From an uncultured Actinomycetes bacterium (GTDB lineage Bacteria; Actinomycetota; UBA4738; HRBIN12), in NCBI GenBank assembly GCA_963704725.1, contig OY969934.1:1600001-1664000 (forward strand): a stretch of DNA of 64,000 nucleotides, written 5' to 3'. This document shows positions 15,856 to 22,694 of this stretch, piece after piece. The notes under the pieces are model-generated. The model saw only the letters and a program-made list of their open reading frames with translations, did not search any database and was not told the origin of the DNA. Position 1 is the first letter of the stretch, and each line of letters begins with the position of its first letter. The translations under genes were made by a program, and so were the position numbers.

Positions 15856-16113
15856 ATGGGCCGATCCCAGGCGGATGCACCCGCGGCCGGGAGTGGGGGC
15901 TCGGTGCGAGGCTGGGGGATCGCGGTCGTTCGCGCGATCGCGATGCTCGTGGTCGTCTTCGTTGTGTTCGCCGTGGTCCCGAACTGGCTCCTGGGACGCC
16001 TGGCGACGAGGGTGACCTCCACGGGGCGCGACCTCATCCTCGTCGGCTGGTCGACCGTCGCGTTCGTGGGCGCCGGGTGGCTGTTCTTTCGCCTCCAGCG
16101 CGGGGAGCGTTGA
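15856..16113 (+). CDS. small two-TM membrane protein, first gene of the respiratory operon
   Basis: two hydrophobic helices; stop overlaps TTG of next gene; TAGGGT -10-like hexamer at 15841-15846. Confidence 0.6.
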   Translation: MGRSQADAPAAGSGGSVRGWGIAVVRAIAMLVVVFVVFAVVPNWLLGRLATRVTSTGRDLILVGWSTVAFVGAGWLFFRLQRGER

Positions 16114-17951
16114 GCGTGTCGTTCGTGGCCCGGCAGGTCGGCGGCGAGTGGTTCGACGACAACGTGCCGTGCACCCGCGCCTGCCCCGTGCTGACGATGG
16201 CGGGTCGGTACGTCGCCGCGATCGCGGCCGGCGACGACAGGTTGGCGTACGAGATCGCGCGCCTGCCGAACCCGTTTCCCTCGATCTGCGGCCGCGTCTG
16301 CGCGGCGCCGTGCGAGATCGCGTGCCGACGAGGCTCGATCGACCAGCCGATCGCCATCCGAGCGCTCAAGCGCCACGTGTGCGAGCGGTTCGGCGTCGAG
16401 AGCGAGCACGGCGACGAGGTCTACCGGCGCGCGGCCACGATCGCGCCTCCGCGGAGCGAGCGCATCGCCGTGATCGGCTCGGGCCCGGCCGGCCTTGCCT
16501 GCGCGCACGACCTGGCCACGTTCGGCTATCGGCCGGTCGTGTTCGAGGCCGCGGATCGTCCGGGCGGTCAGATGGTGCTGTCGATCCCGCCGTACCGGCT
16601 CCGCCGAGACCTCCTGGAGAGGGAGATCGACGCCGTGCTCGGCATGGGGGTGGAGGTGCGGACCGAGACGGCGCTCGGCCGCGACTTCACGCTCGCCTCG
16701 CTCTTCGACGACGGCTTCGAGGCGGTCTTCCTCGGGATCGGGGCGACCCGCGGTCGCGACCTGAACATCCCCGGACACGACAAGGACGGCGTCCTCAAGG
16801 CGATCGACTTTCTGCTCAACGCCAGCCTGGGCTACACGGTGGAGCTCGGCGCCGAGGTGCTGGTGATCGGCGGGGGAAACGTGGCCCTCGACGCCGCGCG
16901 GACGGCGCTCCGCACCCCCGCCACGAGTGGCGACGGGGACTCCCTCGCGGAGGCGGGGGAGGTCCAGGCCACGGCGGTGTTCGACGTCGCCCGGACCGCC
17001 GCCCGGATGGGCGCGCGGGTCACGGTCGTCTCGCTCGAGAACCGCGAGGAGATGCCGGCGCACGAATTCGAGATCGAGGAGGCCGAGGTCGAGGGGATCG
17101 CGCTGCGTCACCGGCTGGGGCCGAAGGCGATCGTCGGAAACGGACAGGTCACCGGTCTCGAGGTCCTCGACGTCTCATCCGTGTTCGACGCCGACGGCCG
17201 GTTCAACCCCAAGATGATCGACGGAACCGAGCGGGTCATCCCATGCGACTCGGTGATCATCGCGATCGGACAGTCGCCCGACCTGTCGTGGATGCGTCCG
17301 GAGGACGGCCTCGAGACCGGGCCGGGTGGGACGATCCGGGTCGACTCCGAGTCCCTGGCGACCAGCGACGGGAGGATCTACGCGGGCGGCGACGTCGCCT
17401 TCGGCCCGCGCAACCTGATCGATGCGATCGGCGACGGCCGGCGCGCTGCGGCCTCGATCCATCGGCAGATCGCGGGCGCCGAGCCGCCCCGGCCGACGCT
17501 CTCGAACCGCCGGATGCTGCCGATCGTCTCAGTCAATCGGGGTGCGGGCGGCCGCACGTACACCGAGCGCGATCGCGTCCCCGTTCCCGCCGAGCCCACC
17601 GGCCGCCGGATCGGCTCGCCGGAGGTGGAGCTCGGTTACACGGAGGCGGAGGCCCGCGAGGAGGCCGGCCGATGCCTGCAGTGCTTCCTCAACATCATGC
17701 TCGACGAGACCCGGTGCATCCTGTGCCGGGGATGCGTGGACGTGTGTCCGGAGCGGTGCATCCGGATCCTGCCCGCCGAGCAGGTCGCCGGGATCGAGGT
17801 GCACGAGCCGTCGAGCGTCCTGGTGATCCAGGAGGAGCTGTGCATCCGCTGCGGGCTGTGTGTGGACCGCTGCCCCACGGACGCGCTGTCGCTCGAGGGC
17901 TGGTCGGAGGCGTCCTCGGCGCCGGTCGCGCTCGAGCTGGTGCCGCGGTGA
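16110..17951 (+). CDS. GltD/NfnB/DsrL-like FAD- and NAD(P)-dependent oxidoreductase with C-terminal 2[4Fe-4S] ferredoxin domain
   Basis: CTRACP…[13 protein letters not shown] cluster motifs, [45 protein letters not shown]. Confidence 0.9.
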
Positions 17952-17952
17952 G

Positions 17953-18792
17953 ATGAGGCCGATGTCGTCGAACGGGCGGAAGCTGCGGGACCGGGAGTGG
18001 TACAAGGCGCTGCTGCATCCGGGCGAAACGTTCCGCGAGAGCGAGGTCTACCGCTCGGCGATCCGACACCCCAGGCCCGATACGCCGCGCGGCCGGGCGC
18101 TGACGTCGTTCCAGAGCTTCTTCCTGCACATCTATCCGGTGAAGGTCCCGGCCGCCGTCGCCAGGACCAGGACCACGCTCCGGCTCGGATTCATCGCGAC
18201 GGTGCTCTTCGCGATCCTGTTCGTCTCCGGGATGTACCTGATGTTCTTCTACCACCCGGCCGTCCCCGACGCGTACTTCGACATGCATACGCTCGCGACG
18301 TCGGTCACGTTCGGGCAGTTCGTCCGCAACGTGCATCGCTGGTCGGCGCACCTGATGGTGGTCGTGGTGGCGCTGCACCTCCTGCGGGTCTTCTACTCCG
18401 GGGCGTACCGGGCGCCGCGACAGTTCAACTGGGTGATCGGCGTCGGCCTGTTCGTCGTCACCCTGCTGCTGTCGTTCACCGGCTACCTGCTGCCGTGGGA
18501 CCAGCTCGCGTTCTGGGCCATCACCGTCGGGACGAACATCGCCGGCTACGTGCCGCTCCTCGGCGGCCACGTTCGTTCGCTCCTGCTCGGCGGGAGCGAC
18601 GTGACCGGAGACGCGCTGTTGCGCTTCTACGTGCTGCACATCTACCTCTTGCCGACCCTGATGGTGATCGGCATCGCCATCCACGTCTGGCGCGTCCGAA
18701 AGGACGGGTTCGCGGTCCAGGACCGCGTGGAGGAAGAGCCCGTGCACCTCGAGGAGTCCGAGGCGAAGGAGGTGGCCGATGTCCGCTCGTGA
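17953..18792 (+). CDS. cytochrome b6-type (N-terminal cytochrome b) subunit
   Basis: HRWSAH…[23 protein letters not shown]…IH with 14 residues between the helix-D histidines. Confidence 0.93.
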
Positions 18793-19291
18793 GCCCGAGC
18801 CGCGATTCCGCCTCCTCGGGGTCGTCTCCAAGGAGGTCGAGCAGCAGCGGGACGAGGAGCTGCCCGAGGACGCGGTCTTCACGTGGCCGCACTTCCTGAT
18901 CCGCCATGCGGTCGTCGCCGCCGGGGTGGTCGTCGTCGTGTTCGTGCTGGCGATCCTGTTCCAGGCGCCGCTGAAGGACATCGCGAACCCCAGCGAGACG
19001 CCGGACGTGGCGAAGGCGCCCTGGTACTTCGCCGGTCTCCAGGAGCTGCTCCACTGGCTCCAGCCGGTCGTCGCCGGCGTGCTCATCCCGGGCGCGGCGC
19101 TCACGTGGCTGGTCGCGCTCCCGTACCTGGACCGCGGACGCGGTTGGAGGATCCGGGACCGGAGGTTCGTCGTCGTGGTATTCACGGTCGTGGCGGTCGC
19201 CGCGCTCGTGCTGACCGTCGTCGGCACGTTCTTCCGGGGGCCGGAGTGGAGCTGGGTCTGGCCGTGGACCCACAACTACGCGGAGTTCTGA
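18779..19291 (+). CDS. cytochrome b6 subunit IV-like (C-terminal cytochrome b)
   Basis: ANPSETP…KAPWYF (PEWY-equivalent), LPYLDR, three TM helices. Confidence 0.88.
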
Positions 19292-19292
19292 C

Positions 19293-19889
19293 ATGAGCGA
19301 CGAGCACAGCGAGCAGGGCCCGCCCGAGGCGGGCGAGCCGAGCGCGCAGGGTCCCCAGCCCGATCGTCCGGGCGGCATGGATCGCCGACGGTTCATGAGC
19401 GGGGCGTGGAAGACGATCGGCGTCGTGCTGGTCGGGGAGGGCGTGTGGACCTCCTACGACCTGCTGAACCCGAAGTCGGCGGCGGGCGGGGGCGTGATCG
19501 ACGCGGGACCGGTGAGCGACTTCGAGCAGGACGGCTCGGTCAGCTACTTCCTGAACGGGCGGTTCTACGTCACCAACCACCAGGGCGGGCTCCGAGCGCT
19601 CTACCAGAAGTGCCCGCACCTCGGTTGCCGGGTCCCGTTCTGCACGAGCTCCGGTCAGTTCGAGTGCCCCTGCCACGGGAGCGTCTACAACCTCATCGGC
19701 GAGTACCTGCGAGGGCCGACGCCGCGCGGCATGGACCGCTTCGAGATCTCGATCGAGAACGACCGGGTGATGGTGGACACGGGCGCGCTCGTCGAGGGGC
19801 CGCCGCGCGACGAGCTGACCGGGCCCTCCGAGCCGGCCGGGCCGTCCTGCGTGACGACGCAGGGCGATTCGTCGCCGGCGGGTGCCTAG
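19293..19889 (+). CDS. Rieske 2Fe-2S protein
   Basis: Tat-like MDRRRFM, CPHLGC, CPCHGSVY, GPTPRGM. Confidence 0.93.
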   Translation: MSDEHSEQGPPEAGEPSAQGPQPDRPGGMDRRRFMSGAWKTIGVVLVGEGVWTSYDLLNPKSAAGGGVIDAGPVSDFEQDGSVSYFLNGRFYVTNHQGGLRALYQKCPHLGCRVPFCTSSGQFECPCHGSVYNLIGEYLRGPTPRGMDRFEISIENDRVMVDTGALVEGPPRDELTGPSEPAGPSCVTTQGDSSPAGA

Positions 19890-19899
19890 GAGTCCCGAC

Positions 19900-22050
19900 A
19901 TGGGAGAGAAGATCCGCGACGACCCCGCGCTGGAGCGTTCGACGCGGCGATGGCAGACATCGGGCATGGTCGTGTTCCTCCTCCTCGTCCTCGCCTTCCC
20001 CGTCTACCGGCTGACCGAGGGAGGGCGCCTGGACGACGCGCGGGCGTCGGAGCATGCCGCGCAGATCGCGGCGGGGCGGCAGCTCTGGTCGCTCAACTGC
20101 TCGAGCTGCCACGGGGCGCAGGGAGAGGGCGTGGACGCGCCCGCGCTGAACTCCCAGGAGTTCCTGCAGAGCGTCTCGGACCGGCAGATCCACGGCATCG
20201 TGGCCGGCGGGATCCCGGGCTCGGCGATGCCCGCCTGGCTGGACGAGTACGGCGGACCGCTCACCGATCAGCAGATCGCCGCCCTCGTCGCCTTCGTCCG
20301 GTCCTGGGAGCCGACCGCGCCGAGCGTTCCCGACTGGCGGACCCCGTCCGGAGTCGCCGTGATGCGGGCGATGGCCGGCGCTCGGACCCGGCGCCGCATC
20401 GTGGCCGCCGTGCCGCTCGTGCTGGCGATGACCGCGTGCGTGGCGCAGGGTCAGAACCCGGCGGCGTCGCGCACGGTCGTGTTCATCCCCGGATCGGGCG
20501 CCGCGGAAGGGCCCGCTCTGTTGGGGTACGACGACCCGTCGAAGTCCGGCTCGGTGGTCTCCGTCGCCCTGGGCACCACCTCGCCCAGTCAGATGACGAT
20601 CGAGCTGTCCCAATCGGTGGCGCCCCAGGGCAGCGTCTCCTTCCTGGTCACCAACACCGCGGCCGAGACCCACGAGTTCGTGGTCCTGCAGACCGACCAG
20701 CCCGCCGATGCCTTCCCGGTCGTGTCCTTCGAGGGGGAGGCCAACCGCATCGACGAGGAGGCCACCGGCGTCATCAACGTGGGCGAGACCGGCGACATGG
20801 AGGCCGGTGCCGTCCAGATGCTCACGCTGGACCTGCCGCCCGGTCACTACGCCGTGGTCTGCAACCTGCCGGGCCACTACGCCGCCGGGATGCACCAGGA
20901 CTTCTGGGTCACCCCGACGGGGTCGACCCCGGTCTCCGTCGCCCTGGGCACCACCTCGCCCAGTCAGATGACGATCGAGCTGTCCCAATCGGTGGCGCCC
21001 CAGGGCAGCGTCTCCTTCCTGGTCACCAACACCGCGGCCGAGACCCACGAGTTCGTGGTCCTGCAGACCGACCAGCCCGCCGATGCCTTCCCGGTCGTGT
21101 CCTTCGAGGGGGAGGCCAACCGCATCGACGAGGAGGCCACCGGCGTCATCAACGTGGGCGAGACCGGCGACATGGAGGCCGGTGCCGTCCAGATGCTCAC
21201 GCTGGACCTGCCGCCCGGTCACTACGCCGTGGTCTGCAACCTGCCGGGCCACTACGCCGCCGGGATGCACCAGGACTTCTGGGTCACCCCGACGGGGTCG
21301 ACCCCGGTCTCCGTCGCCCTGGGCACCACCTCGCCCAGTCAGATGACGATCGAGCTGTCCCAATCGGTGGCGCCCCAGGGCAGCGTCTCCTTCCTGGTCA
21401 CCAACACCGCGGCCGAGACCCACGAGTTCGTGGTCCTGCAGACCGACCAGCCCGCCGATGCCTTCCCGGTCGTGTCCTTCGAGGGGGAGGCCAACCGCAT
21501 CGACGAGGAGGCCACCGGCGTCATCAACGTGGGCGAGACCGGCGACATGGAGGCCGGTGCCGTCCAGATGCTCACGCTGGACCTGCCGCCCGGTCACTAC
21601 GCCGTGGTCTGCAACCTGCCGGGCCACTACGCCGCCGGGATGCACCAGGACTTCTGGGTCACCCCGACGGGGTCGACCCCGGTCTCCGTCGCCCTGGGCA
21701 CCACCTCGCCCAGTCAGATGACGATCGAGCTGTCCCAATCGGTGGCGCCCCAGGGCAGCGTCTCCTTCCTGGTCACCAACACCGCGGCCGAGACCCACGA
21801 GTTCGTGGTCCTGCAGACCGACCAGCCCGCCGATGCCTTCCCGGTCGTGTCCTTCGAGGGGGAGGCCAACCGCATCGACGAGGAGGCCACCGGCGTCATC
21901 AACGTGGGCGAGACCGGCGACATGGAGGCCGGTGCCGTCCAGATGCTCACGCTGGACCTGCCGCCCGGTCACTACGCCGTGGTCTGCAACCTGCCGGGCC
22001 ACTACGCCGCCGGGATGCACCAGGACTTCTGGGTCACCCCGCGCCCCTGA
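19900..22050 (+). CDS. membrane-anchored cytochrome c in frame with four tandem cupredoxin domains (possibly two genes; see findings)
   Basis: N-terminal TM, CSSCH plus axial-Met AMPAW; four copies of THEF…CNLPGHYAAGM. Confidence 0.8.
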   Translation: MGEKIRDDPALERSTRRWQTSGMVVFLLLVLAFPVYRLTEGGRLDDARASEHAAQIAAGRQLWSLNCSSCHGAQGEGVDAPALNSQEFLQSVSDRQIHGIVAGGIPGSAMPAWLDEYGGPLTDQQIAALVAFVRSWEPTAPSVPDWRTPSGVAVMRAMAGARTRRRIVAAVPLVLAMTACVAQGQNPAASRTVVFIPGSGAAEGPALLGYDDPSKSGSVVSVALGTTSPSQMTIELSQSVAPQGSVSFLVTNTAAETHEFVVLQTDQPADAFPVVSFEGEANRIDEEATGVINVGETGDMEAGAVQMLTLDLPPGHYAVVCNLPGHYAAGMHQDFWVTPTGSTPVSVALGTTSPSQMTIELSQSVAPQGSVSFLVTNTAAETHEFVVLQTDQPADAFPVVSFEGEANRIDEEATGVINVGETGDMEAGAVQMLTLDLPPGHYAVVCNLPGHYAAGMHQDFWVTPTGSTPVSVALGTTSPSQMTIELSQSVAPQGSVSFLVTNTAAETHEFVVLQTDQPADAFPVVSFEGEANRIDEEATGVINVGETGDMEAGAVQMLTLDLPPGHYAVVCNLPGHYAAGMHQDFWVTPTGSTPVSVALGTTSPSQMTIELSQSVAPQGSVSFLVTNTAAETHEFVVLQTDQPADAFPVVSFEGEANRIDEEATGVINVGETGDMEAGAVQMLTLDLPPGHYAVVCNLPGHYAAGMHQDFWVTPRP
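20556..22041 (+). repeat. tandem repeat, ~3.96 x 375 bp, apparently identical
   Basis: unit starts at 20556, 20931, 21306, 21681; shadow ORFs in other frames recur with identical translations at 375-bp spacing. Confidence 0.95.
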
Positions 22051-22074: not shown

Positions 22075-22476
22075 TCAGCCGACCGGCTCGATCCGGAGAT
22101 CCGTGTGCCGCGCGATGGCGTCGAAGTCCCGGTTGTCGTGCAGCAGACTAGCGCCCGCTCGGATCGCGACCGCCGCGATCAGGCAATCCGTCATCTTCCG
22201 GATGGTCTCGCCCGCCCCCCAACACTGACGGTAGATCCGGGCCGCCTCCTCGTACCCATGAAGGCCGAGAAGGGGAACGACCGGGTACTCGAGGATCGTC
22301 CCGCGGATCGTGGTGGCATCACGCTCCGTTCGAGCGCCCGCGAGAAGCTCCATGACGACGATCTCGCTGGTCACGAGGTCCGCGTCCTCCTCCACGAGGC
22401 TTCGCAGCGCGTGATGCATCGGCGAAGTCGATCCGCGCAGGAACTCCACCCAGGCGCTCGAGTCGGGCAGGATCAC
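22075..22476 (-). CDS. vapC: VapC PIN-domain toxin
   Basis: ILPDSSAW, VVMELLAGAR, DCLIAAVAI, LHDNRDF. Confidence 0.92.
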   Translation of the reverse strand: MILPDSSAWVEFLRGSTSPMHHALRSLVEEDADLVTSEIVVMELLAGARTERDATTIRGTILEYPVVPLLGLHGYEEAARIYRQCWGAGETIRKMTDCLIAAVAIRAGASLLHDNRDFDAIARHTDLRIEPVG

Positions 22477-22694
22477 AGCTTCTCGACGACGCGACCACCG
22501 CGCATCTCATCCAGGTCCCCGCTCCAGCCGATCCCTTCGAGAGCCAGCGTCTTCTGCTTCCGTCCCTGTGCCCGGGCGGCGTACCGGAGGGCGAAGTCGA
22601 TCGCCTCGCGCTTGGTGCGGAGCCCGTACAGATCCATGACCCGACGAAGCAGCCCCTCGTCGACCACCACGTTCGTTCTCACCTTCCGCCCCAT
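22473..22694 (-). CDS. vapB: VapB antitoxin
   Basis: RTNVVVDE…GLRTKREAIDFAL…GWSGDLDEMR; overlaps vapC start. Confidence 0.88.
   Translation of the reverse strand: MGRKVRTNVVVDEGLLRRVMDLYGLRTKREAIDFALRYAARAQGRKQKTLALEGIGWSGDLDEMRGGRVVEKL

Follow-up and report, generated by a model that had tools for sequence, protein, structure and literature searches.

The 64,000-nucleotide window analysed here (positions 1,600,001 to 1,664,000 of contig OY969934.1, assembly GCA_963704725.1) comes from an uncultured, soil-type actinobacterium whose genome is a complete 3.45-Mb single contig, and has about 70% G+C. At 15856–22050, on the + strand, lies a run of tightly packed open reading frames (ORFs) for a Rieske/cytochrome b complex. 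The operon opens with a small membrane protein of 85 amino acids (aa) with two hydrophobic stretches (15856–16113; G+C at third codon positions 0.87), which matched no family in Pfam or NCBIfam. It is followed by an NAD-type Fe–S flavoprotein (611 aa, 16116–17951; Pfam Pyr_redox_2 1e-31, Fer4_20 8.9e-15, Fer4 1.3e-11), starting at GTG 16116 or possibly at TTG 16110; a short cytochrome b6 extended at its N terminus by about 75 residues (279 aa, 17953–18792; Cytochrome_B 1.5e-40); subunit IV with three hydrophobic stretches (170 aa, 18779–19291; Cytochrom_B_C 2.7e-11); a Rieske [2Fe–2S] protein carrying an RRRF twin-arginine translocation motif (198 aa, 19293–19889; Rieske 1.2e-9); and a single ORF (19882/19900–22050) that spans a cytochrome c domain with a single CxxCH and, after it, four cupredoxin stretches of SoxE/sulfocyanin type. 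A preliminary description of this DNA had counted six genes here, with overlaps or gaps of 10 nt or less. Every domain that it named was recovered in its place, on the + strand, by Pfam and NCBIfam, but its sixth gene is probably two. The spacings, in order, are 2, 1, −14 (an overlap), 1 and −8 or +10 nt, so that one junction exceeds the limit it gave. We are highly confident that this is an accessory, self-contained b6-type Rieske/cytochrome b operon of the APWY clade, with a cytoplasmic, NAD-type FAD/4×[4Fe–4S] flavoprotein in the unit and an extracytoplasmic output that runs through a membrane-anchored monohaem cytochrome c and a four-domain, lipid-anchored copper chain.

Cytochrome c and the cupredoxin domains had been described as one protein; comparison with relatives separates them. 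Of 60 related loci that gave a cytochrome c match, 56 have a cytochrome c ORF that stops right after a conserved ...PDWR(T/N)P... tail, and the cupredoxin protein in those loci is a separate gene with its own start and lipoprotein signal. The four exceptions are a locus cut by a contig end, a dihaem form (L044), a match that lies in a different frame (L019) and one to an unlike cytochrome c (L056). The window has a TGA at 20360, which is out of frame, and the cytochrome c, having no stop of its own, continues into the cupredoxin gene. An in-frame ATG at 20362, with GGAG 10–13 nt upstream, opens MRAMAGARTRRRIVAAVPLVLAMTAC, and the lipoprotein-like signal opened there ends in the lipobox LAMTAC. 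Because a fusion would place a signal-peptide-like helix behind a domain that had already been exported, the junction is read as a one-base indel, whether real or an assembly error. The joined ORF is probably a read-through of two genes, one for a membrane-anchored monohaem cytochrome c with a CSSCH motif (19900–20361; Cytochrome_CBB3 3.5e-10, Cytochrom_C 2.8e-9) and one for a lipoprotein that holds, in tandem, four type-1 (blue) copper domains of auracyanin/sulfocyanin-like type (20362–22050; SoxE 3.2e-32).

A p side built of haem c followed by type-1 copper domains, as first proposed, agrees with the Pfam matches and with alignment of the copper ligands. One in-frame repeat matches auracyanin B (1ov8, 4.5e-4) and the blue copper protein 6kol (9.6e-4), with C-x4-H-x4-M and an upstream His aligned to both structures, and all four repeats carry the type-1 ligand set His...Cys-x-His-x-Met, as ETHEF and VCNLPGHYAAGM. 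The DNA of the four domains is a 375-bp tandem repeat of 4.0 copies that are 100% identical (20556–22041; Tandem Repeats Finder). Arrays were found in 29 of 62 scanned related loci, with periods of 375–384 bp, 2–6 copies and 78–100% internal identity, and their units are often 99–100% identical within a genome (as at 20556–22041 of the window and in loci L006–L063, L079 and L080). Units of related genomes are only 50–84% identical in protein to those of the window, and this combination of high identity within genomes and strong divergence between them indicates concerted evolution of the arrays. Homogenisation may have come about by unequal recombination, or may in part reflect assembly collapse. 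Other copper arrangements also occur: a single-domain cupredoxin lipoprotein upstream of the flavoprotein, with no downstream array, at L073, L075, L084–L088, L091 and L099, and fused forms in Gemmatimonadota and Myxococcota loci.

The flavoprotein is laid out as Fer4_20, Pyr_redox_2 and a C-terminal 2×[4Fe–4S] domain, with a GltD/NfnA-like FAD/NAD(P) module. Its best NCBIfam model is PRK12771 (418 bits, cut-off 516), and its closest solved relatives are NfnA (9n5u, 1.1e-85), chain A of 9bov/9bp5 (2e-81), Hyl (8oh5) and NfnI-L (5jca). It has the circular permutation of NfnA, its residues 485–524 matching NfnI-L residues 6–46. All 16 cluster cysteines are invariant across 43 flavoprotein sequences, giving four complete [4Fe–4S] sites. 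After the second Rossmann strand, SLE (residues 306–308) replaces the YRR of Nfn, so that the basic motif of NADPH-type NfnB/GltD enzymes is absent, and Glu occupies this site in 42 of the 43 linked flavoproteins. YRR binds the 2′-phosphate, and an acidic residue at this position of a Rossmann fold goes with NAD(H) rather than NADP(H); the Glu therefore points to NAD(H). An extra segment of about 20 residues (269–288, in the region of residues 261–297), absent from the aligned Nfn structures, sits between two similar stretches, one of them reading ...DAARTALR, and looks like a partial internal duplication.

Cytochrome b has its best solved relatives among chloroplast and cyanobacterial b6 proteins (8.5e-41), with residue 78 aligned to b6 residue 36. 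This alignment puts Arg77 at the position of b6 Cys35, the haem cN cysteine, which the window's protein lacks; the motif in its clade is RLGF. The cysteine is missing in 88 of 91 flavoprotein-linked cytochromes b, and CLGG is kept in 22 of 26 that are accompanied only by a small ferredoxin. Two His pairs, H128/H142 and H229/H244, together with a subunit IV on a separate ORF, make this a split four-helix cytochrome b. These four residues, H59 and W246-R247-x-R249-K250-D251 are all invariant in 32 cytochrome b sequences. In passages of a study of the anammox bacterium Kuenenia, AlphaFold3 models have an extra haem b at the dimer interface, bound by His43/His62 and Arg247/Arg266-Lys267 (PMC12954380); H59, in the N-terminal extension, and W246-R-x-R-K-D, after helix D, lie at numerically similar positions. 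Subunit IV carries the Qo motif APWY (within KAPWYF), as do 134 of 136 related subunit IV matches. The Rieske protein, of bc type, has the boxes CPHLGC and CPCHGSVY, the disulfide cysteines and the Ser/Tyr pair. Its closest solved relatives are 8hn2 (1e-15) and then 9rk4/9rk3 (about 1e-14), the latter apparently the Kuenenia Rieske domains of the same study, in parts of which a measured potential of +303 mV accompanies the Ser/Tyr pair of Kuste4569, and one of +335 mV the Ser of that pair in Kustd1480 (PMC12954380).

The linkage of these genes is widely conserved. A search seeded with the flavoprotein yielded 75 loci, in 64 of which cytochrome b adjoins it; the full order flavoprotein–b6–subunit IV–Rieske–cytochrome c recurs in 59, far beyond chance. 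Four of the five remaining cytochrome-b-adjacent loci are cut by contig ends, and the fifth, L048, is ordered differently (Rrf2–flavoprotein–Rieske–fused cytochrome b–cytochrome c–NosZ). Among the 64 syntenic loci, the small membrane protein lies directly upstream of the flavoprotein in 38 (tblastn), and cupredoxin repeats lie downstream in 39, five units being commonest. The other 11 of the 75 comprise 10 Nitrospirota-type NuoF–GltD fusions and one partial match. These Nitrospirota/Leptospirillia proteins (two of them checked with Pfam), which carry YYRR and have no cytochrome b nearby, were rejected as kin. At L064–L077 the proteins are about 1,050 aa long and consist of a NuoF-like module (Complex1_51K, NADH_4Fe-4S) fused to a GltD-like one, whose YYRR is of NADPH type.

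An independent search with a cytochrome b alignment as seed matched at least 597 stretches, and among the best 80 that were kept the flavoprotein adjoins cytochrome b in 48 (44 full length, 4 cut by contig ends). Both searches thus bear out conservation of the flavoprotein beside these genes. Flavoprotein–cytochrome b pairs span at least eight phyla (Actinomycetota, Chloroflexota, Gemmatimonadota, Acidobacteriota, Myxococcota, Zixibacteria, Verrucomicrobiota and Bacteroidota), and the adjacency, mostly with start/stop coupling, persists down to about 33–40% identity. In 21 of the 80 loci, mostly from Acidimicrobiia, cytochrome b is preceded not by the flavoprotein but by a small ferredoxin, the homologue of its residues 526–610; the isolate Aquihabitans sp. 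G128 (L156) has this ferredoxin-first type. Neither protein is present in 8 loci, and 3 were not judgeable. Flanking genes vary, none of their families being shared by more than 8 of the 64 syntenic loci, which marks the module as self-contained. Some Acidimicrobiia have extra neighbours, namely an added cytochrome c, COX1/COX2, or NarH with MFS transporters; in L051 (Microthrixaceae) the operon follows a NarH-like gene and is itself followed by two genes for MFS transporters, which hints at a link to nitrate respiration in that lineage.

A FastTree phylogeny of 133 cytochromes b placed the window's protein in a well-supported actinobacterial clade, inside a mostly flavoprotein-linked group of 104 rows; the root is unreliable, since the outgroup, the other cytochrome b of this genome, proved to fall within the same clade. 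Among 120 listed longer homologues, a single sequence (P0002), perhaps a frameshift artefact, joins Pyr_redox_2, Fer4 and cytochrome b; two join cytochrome b and Rieske, and the rest look like cytochrome b–subunit IV fusions. When the Gemmatimonas flavoprotein was used to look for cultured hosts, the sole match was the query itself.

Closer to the host, the operon is patchy. At a threshold of E ≤ 1e-60 the flavoprotein is present in 6 of 40 close relatives (2 of 13 for the genus, 5 of 24 for the family and 1 of 16 for the remainder of the order), which marks the operon as accessory. One related metagenome-assembled genome (G010) has three operon copies (L006, L020 and L030) and another (G009) has two; because two of the three G010 copies share flanks, strain mixing within the bin is possible. 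The genome itself holds two cytochrome b genes and one COX1. Its second Rieske/cytochrome b operon (from C1:3047535; L159, C1:3046001–3053000), divergent from ccdA and ctaCDE, encodes in order a ferredoxin, a short cytochrome b (CLGG), subunit IV (APWY), a Rieske protein (CPCHGSKY) and a cytochrome c, and its 2×[4Fe–4S] ferredoxin is 40% identical to flavoprotein residues 526–610. The presence of a second complex, together with the patchy distribution, supports the complex of the window as accessory, the term used in the preliminary description. The contrast drawn there with the usual qcrCAB, clustered with cta oxidase genes and containing a long cytochrome b, has to be dropped for this organism: its cta-linked complex is also split and b6-type, and no long QcrB was found among the genome's two cytochrome b genes. 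The small membrane proteins that head the two operons (15856–16113; L159:993–1418) match weakly over 27 residues (E 0.035, a single comparison) and may be a common small subunit.

The only c-type cytochrome domains found in the genome, two in number, belong to its two Rieske/cytochrome b operons. NuoD and multicopper oxidase domains each occur at two places, PntB is present, and there are two [NiFe] hydrogenase large subunits; a RuBisCO large subunit was not found in a search of the genome, which is 95% complete. Housekeeping genes flank the operon: a glycyl-tRNA synthetase-like gene and an ABC transporter with an NMT1-type binding protein, then a VapBC pair on the other strand, PPDK, a dGTPase-like gene, dnaG and rpoD. 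Neither the operon nor these flanks contain oxidase genes, in keeping with the earlier statement that the locus has no terminal oxidase. A promoter and terminator scan gave nothing useful. A look-up of sequencing runs listed three DNA runs, each with 5–8% of the sequence words, and no RNA run. The VapC (PIN)/VapB toxin–antitoxin pair (22075–22694, − strand) separates the operon from PPDK, which in the closest relatives (L020 and L030) starts within about 85 nt after the cupredoxin gene; the pair therefore looks like a lineage-specific insertion.

What the data show directly is which genes are present, the cofactor motifs that they encode, their conserved linkage and the family to which they belong; from this we infer that the flavoprotein is physically attached, which quinone is used, which way electrons flow and what finally accepts them. 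We tentatively favour, at rather less than even chances, a mechanism suggested by the architecture and by a proposal made for anammox bacteria, in which quinol is oxidised and a low-potential electron leaves through the Fe–S chain to NAD+. Menaquinol would be oxidised at the Qo site, and the first electron would pass downhill from the Rieske protein to cytochrome c, the cupredoxin array and a strong oxidant, with the sole haem-copper oxidase of the genome as the obvious electron sink. The second, low-potential electron would cross the membrane through the two b haems and exit via the ferredoxin domain and the Fe–S chain to FAD and NAD+, instead of, or besides, reducing quinone at Qi. NADH would thereby be made from quinol-level donors such as H2, and complex I would not have to be reversed. 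The stand-alone ferredoxin of 21 of 80 loci and of the organism's own second operon, homologous to residues 526–610, points to that domain as the docking piece. Bifurcation is favoured by the loss of the cN/Qi-type site in flavoprotein-linked forms, by the high-potential Rieske signature and by the nature of the partners, which at these loci are always strong oxidant systems: blue copper here, NosZ in L048 and COX1/COX2 in some Acidimicrobiia. The anammox subunits are reported, in passages of PMC12954380 that cite de Almeida 2016 and Kartal 2013, to co-migrate, and the same mechanism, bifurcation at Qo driving NAD(P)+ reduction, is proposed there. The 'bifurcating' of the preliminary description keeps a conditional standing, drawn as it is from architecture and from the anammox proposal.

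Several considerations weigh against this mechanism. By our estimate, NAD+ reduction from menaquinol against the membrane potential would be thermodynamically marginal unless the b haems were unusually low in potential. A heterotroph-like genome with NuoD and PntB, and in which RuBisCO was not found, does not obviously need a special route to NADH. Anammox complexes keep haem cN, so its loss is not required for the proposed chemistry. Candidate markers of the flavoprotein-bearing form had to be rejected: His59 and WRxRKD are invariant in every class, H59 being equally so (8 of 8) in relatives with neither flavoprotein nor ferredoxin, and thus lend that form no specific support, and relatives that have just the ferredoxin, or no flavoprotein, keep the Rieske Ser/Tyr pair to the same degree. 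That the flavoprotein binds cytochrome b is presumed; a predicted-complex run with two cytochromes b and flavoprotein residues 470–611, made without haems, clusters or controls, gave no answer either way (score 0.00, mark 0.32). We know of no activity, potential or structure for any member of this family. Passages of Kao & Hunte 2014 likewise state that no APWY complex had been characterised at that time (PMC4122944).

NADH may instead be the donor, a possibility that we consider doubtful yet nearly as likely as bifurcation. Electrons would then run from NADH through FAD and the four clusters to the haem bH/Qi pocket and menaquinone, the menaquinol would be oxidised at Qo in a normal Q cycle, and the operon could conceivably form a complete respiratory branch from NADH to copper, and on to O2, without complex I. 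Such entry from the n side has an analogue in cyclic electron flow, where ferredoxin/FNR feeds the n side of cytochrome b6f. All steps would be downhill, the ferredoxin-only housekeeping variant would fit an n-side entry port for electrons, and the pairing of the module with NosZ or COX in other phyla reads as a chain from donor to acceptor. The Glu of 42 of 43 linked flavoproteins is, by the Rossmann rule, an NAD(H) signature of catabolic type, in line with the heterotrophic look of the genome; that signature, however, is silent on direction, and the genome already has complex I. A further difficulty lies in the Qi pocket, as 88 of 91 flavoprotein-linked cytochromes b lack the cysteine that builds a b6-type Qi site, and anammox sequences gave no clear support for a functional QN site in passages of PMC12954380.

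It is improbable that the flavoprotein is no subunit at all and is instead a soluble, NAD(H)-dependent Fe–S oxidoreductase of Nfn/GltD-like kind, merely co-transcribed with an ordinary menaquinol:cytochrome c/cupredoxin reductase. The anammox homologues are reported to co-migrate (passages of PMC12954380), the ferredoxin-only variant retains just the presumed docking domain, and adjacency in at least eight phyla, down to about 33–40% identity, is unusual for mere co-regulation. This outweighs, in our view, the lack of a membrane segment in the flavoprotein, its best matches to soluble enzymes and the lack of a robust natural fusion to cytochrome b (one case among the 120 listed longer homologues). 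Cupredoxins act in iron oxidation elsewhere, and an extracytoplasmic high-potential donor might reduce the copper chain and reverse the complex to feed the quinone pool or NAD+, on the model of proposals made for the bc1 complex of Acidithiobacillus and for the APWY complex of Geobacter metallireducens. We regard such uphill flow as very unlikely, despite the Pro in the Qo motif of Acidithiobacillus complexes and a reversed Q cycle proposed for an APWY complex (cited in a passage of Kao & Hunte 2014; PMC4122944), since the operon and its surroundings (ABC transporter, VapBC, PPDK) hold no donor-oxidising enzyme, RuBisCO was not found in the genome and the relatives' operons are bordered by housekeeping genes of no related function or by genes for oxidase, NosZ or Nar.

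Were bifurcation to NAD+ to hold more widely, a still more tentative prospect, aerobic soil Actinomycetota, along with members of at least seven more phyla, would use a Rieske/cytochrome b complex to make NADH directly from quinol-level donors, atmospheric H2 among them, with O2 or N2O providing the pull by way of a tethered wire of blue copper. What is proposed for anammox bacteria would in that case be an instance of a widespread third route to NADH, next to dehydrogenases and complex I run in reverse. The question of whether such a complex can pass a low-potential electron to NAD(P)+ was raised for anammox bacteria, organisms that are difficult to handle. Finding the same core, its cluster ligands complete and its p side a simple one of haem c plus blue copper, in aerobic Actinomycetota and in many other phyla widens the choice of systems for expression, purification and structural work, and the ferredoxin-only sisters, including the organism's own cta-linked complex, offer a natural comparison. 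The homogenised tandem cupredoxin lipoprotein may, in turn, be a tethered electron carrier of Gram-positive envelopes.

Among known systems, the actinobacterial QcrCAB (bcc)–aa3 chain has in common with the window a menaquinol-type Actinomycetota setting without a soluble cytochrome c. The window's complex differs in its short, split cytochrome b, its monohaem c and its flavoprotein, and QcrCAB identity was rejected on NCBIfam scores far below the cut-offs (QcrB 112.5 bits against 500, QcrA 19.4 against 275, QcrC 35 against 200). The best-scoring NCBIfam models were ExtP and ExtQ of the Geobacter selenite/tellurite operon, which also stayed below their cut-offs (255.4 against 290 and 61.5 against 150 bits) and were rejected. 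Cytochrome b6f has the same split into b6 and subunit IV, the same His-x14-His in helix D and the notion of an n-side flavoprotein; the complex of this non-photosynthetic host has APWY in place of PEWY, no Cys at the Cys35 position and hence no haem cN, no cytochrome f domain in the Pfam scan and no recognised small Pet subunits. Auracyanins, which serve Alternative Complex III (ACIII) of Chloroflexi, resemble the copper protein in their type-1 ligands, their lipid anchor and their being encoded as acceptors of a quinol oxidoreductase. Here, four to five near-identical domains stand in tandem in each lipoprotein, and the partner is a Rieske/cytochrome b complex rather than ACIII. NfnA, NfnABC and Hyl (the Bfu family) and NfnI-L agree with the flavoprotein in their FAD/NAD(P) fold and in the segments that bind clusters, and NfnA also in its permutation; beyond its SLE motif and extra segment, the window's protein differs in having no formate dehydrogenase-like or NuoF-like partner and in being encoded within a membrane-complex operon.

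The family as such is already in print, which overtakes the preliminary description's view of an undescribed system. Kao & Hunte 2014 delineated, in the passages available, an APWY clade of cytochrome b across several phyla that includes deep-branching Actinobacteria with split cytochrome b, listing such proteins from Rubrobacter, Patulibacter, Conexibacter and Ilumatobacter (PMC4122944). Passages of Dibrova et al. 2017 report that short cytochromes b co-occur with NAD(P)-binding Fe–S oxidoreductases 'in many other cases' (PMC5600118). By its Qo motif, the complex of the window belongs to the APWY clade, and it probably falls within 'subfamily G' (Dibrova et al. 2013, 2017), which appears to be the same grouping. 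APWY, split cytochrome b, a mixture of phyla (deep-branching Actinobacteria, Chloroflexi, Planctomycetes) and the co-occurring NAD(P)-binding Fe–S oxidoreductase are common to all, and the cta-linked operon of this genome is also in the clade. Dibrova et al. link short length with CxGG (passages of PMC5600118), whereas the window's cytochrome b is short and lacks CxGG, and those passages of PMC4122944 and PMC5600118 do not mention a cupredoxin array. A few word searches of the literature, which did not extend to the supplements of the evolutionary papers, found no paper on the actinobacterial flavoprotein-linked complex or on tandem-cupredoxin partners; within that scope, the actinobacterial form with its cupredoxin array was not encountered.

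The nearest analogues, as the preliminary description had it, and the only ones that have been studied are the anammox complexes Kuste4569–4574 and Kustd1480–1485 of Kuenenia stuttgartiensis, with which the window was compared by motifs, residue positions and matches to solved structures. Both combine b6, subunit IV, a Rieske protein and a cytoplasmic FAD/NAD(P) Fe–S protein in one operon, the oxidoreductase gene of the window lying 1 nt from cytochrome b. The Kuenenia oxidoreductase is structurally like NfnABC (9bp5) according to passages of PMC12954380, and the window's flavoprotein, judged by sequence, is likewise NfnABC-like with four clusters (9bov/9bp5 chain A, 2e-81; 16 Cys). The Rieske domains are also similar (9rk4/9rk3, about 1e-14; Ser/Tyr pair). 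On the p side, the anammox complexes have hexa- or octahaem c proteins and a HAO-like protein, in contrast to the monohaem c and blue copper found here; their subunit IV has five helices and that of the window is short. All four cluster sites of the window's flavoprotein have four Cys, whereas one anammox site lacks a Cys. The anammox complexes contain haem cN and carry an NADP-type signature, and the complex of this aerobic actinobacterium lacks the haem cN (CxGG) cysteine and carries an NAD-type signature, two differences concrete enough to be tested.

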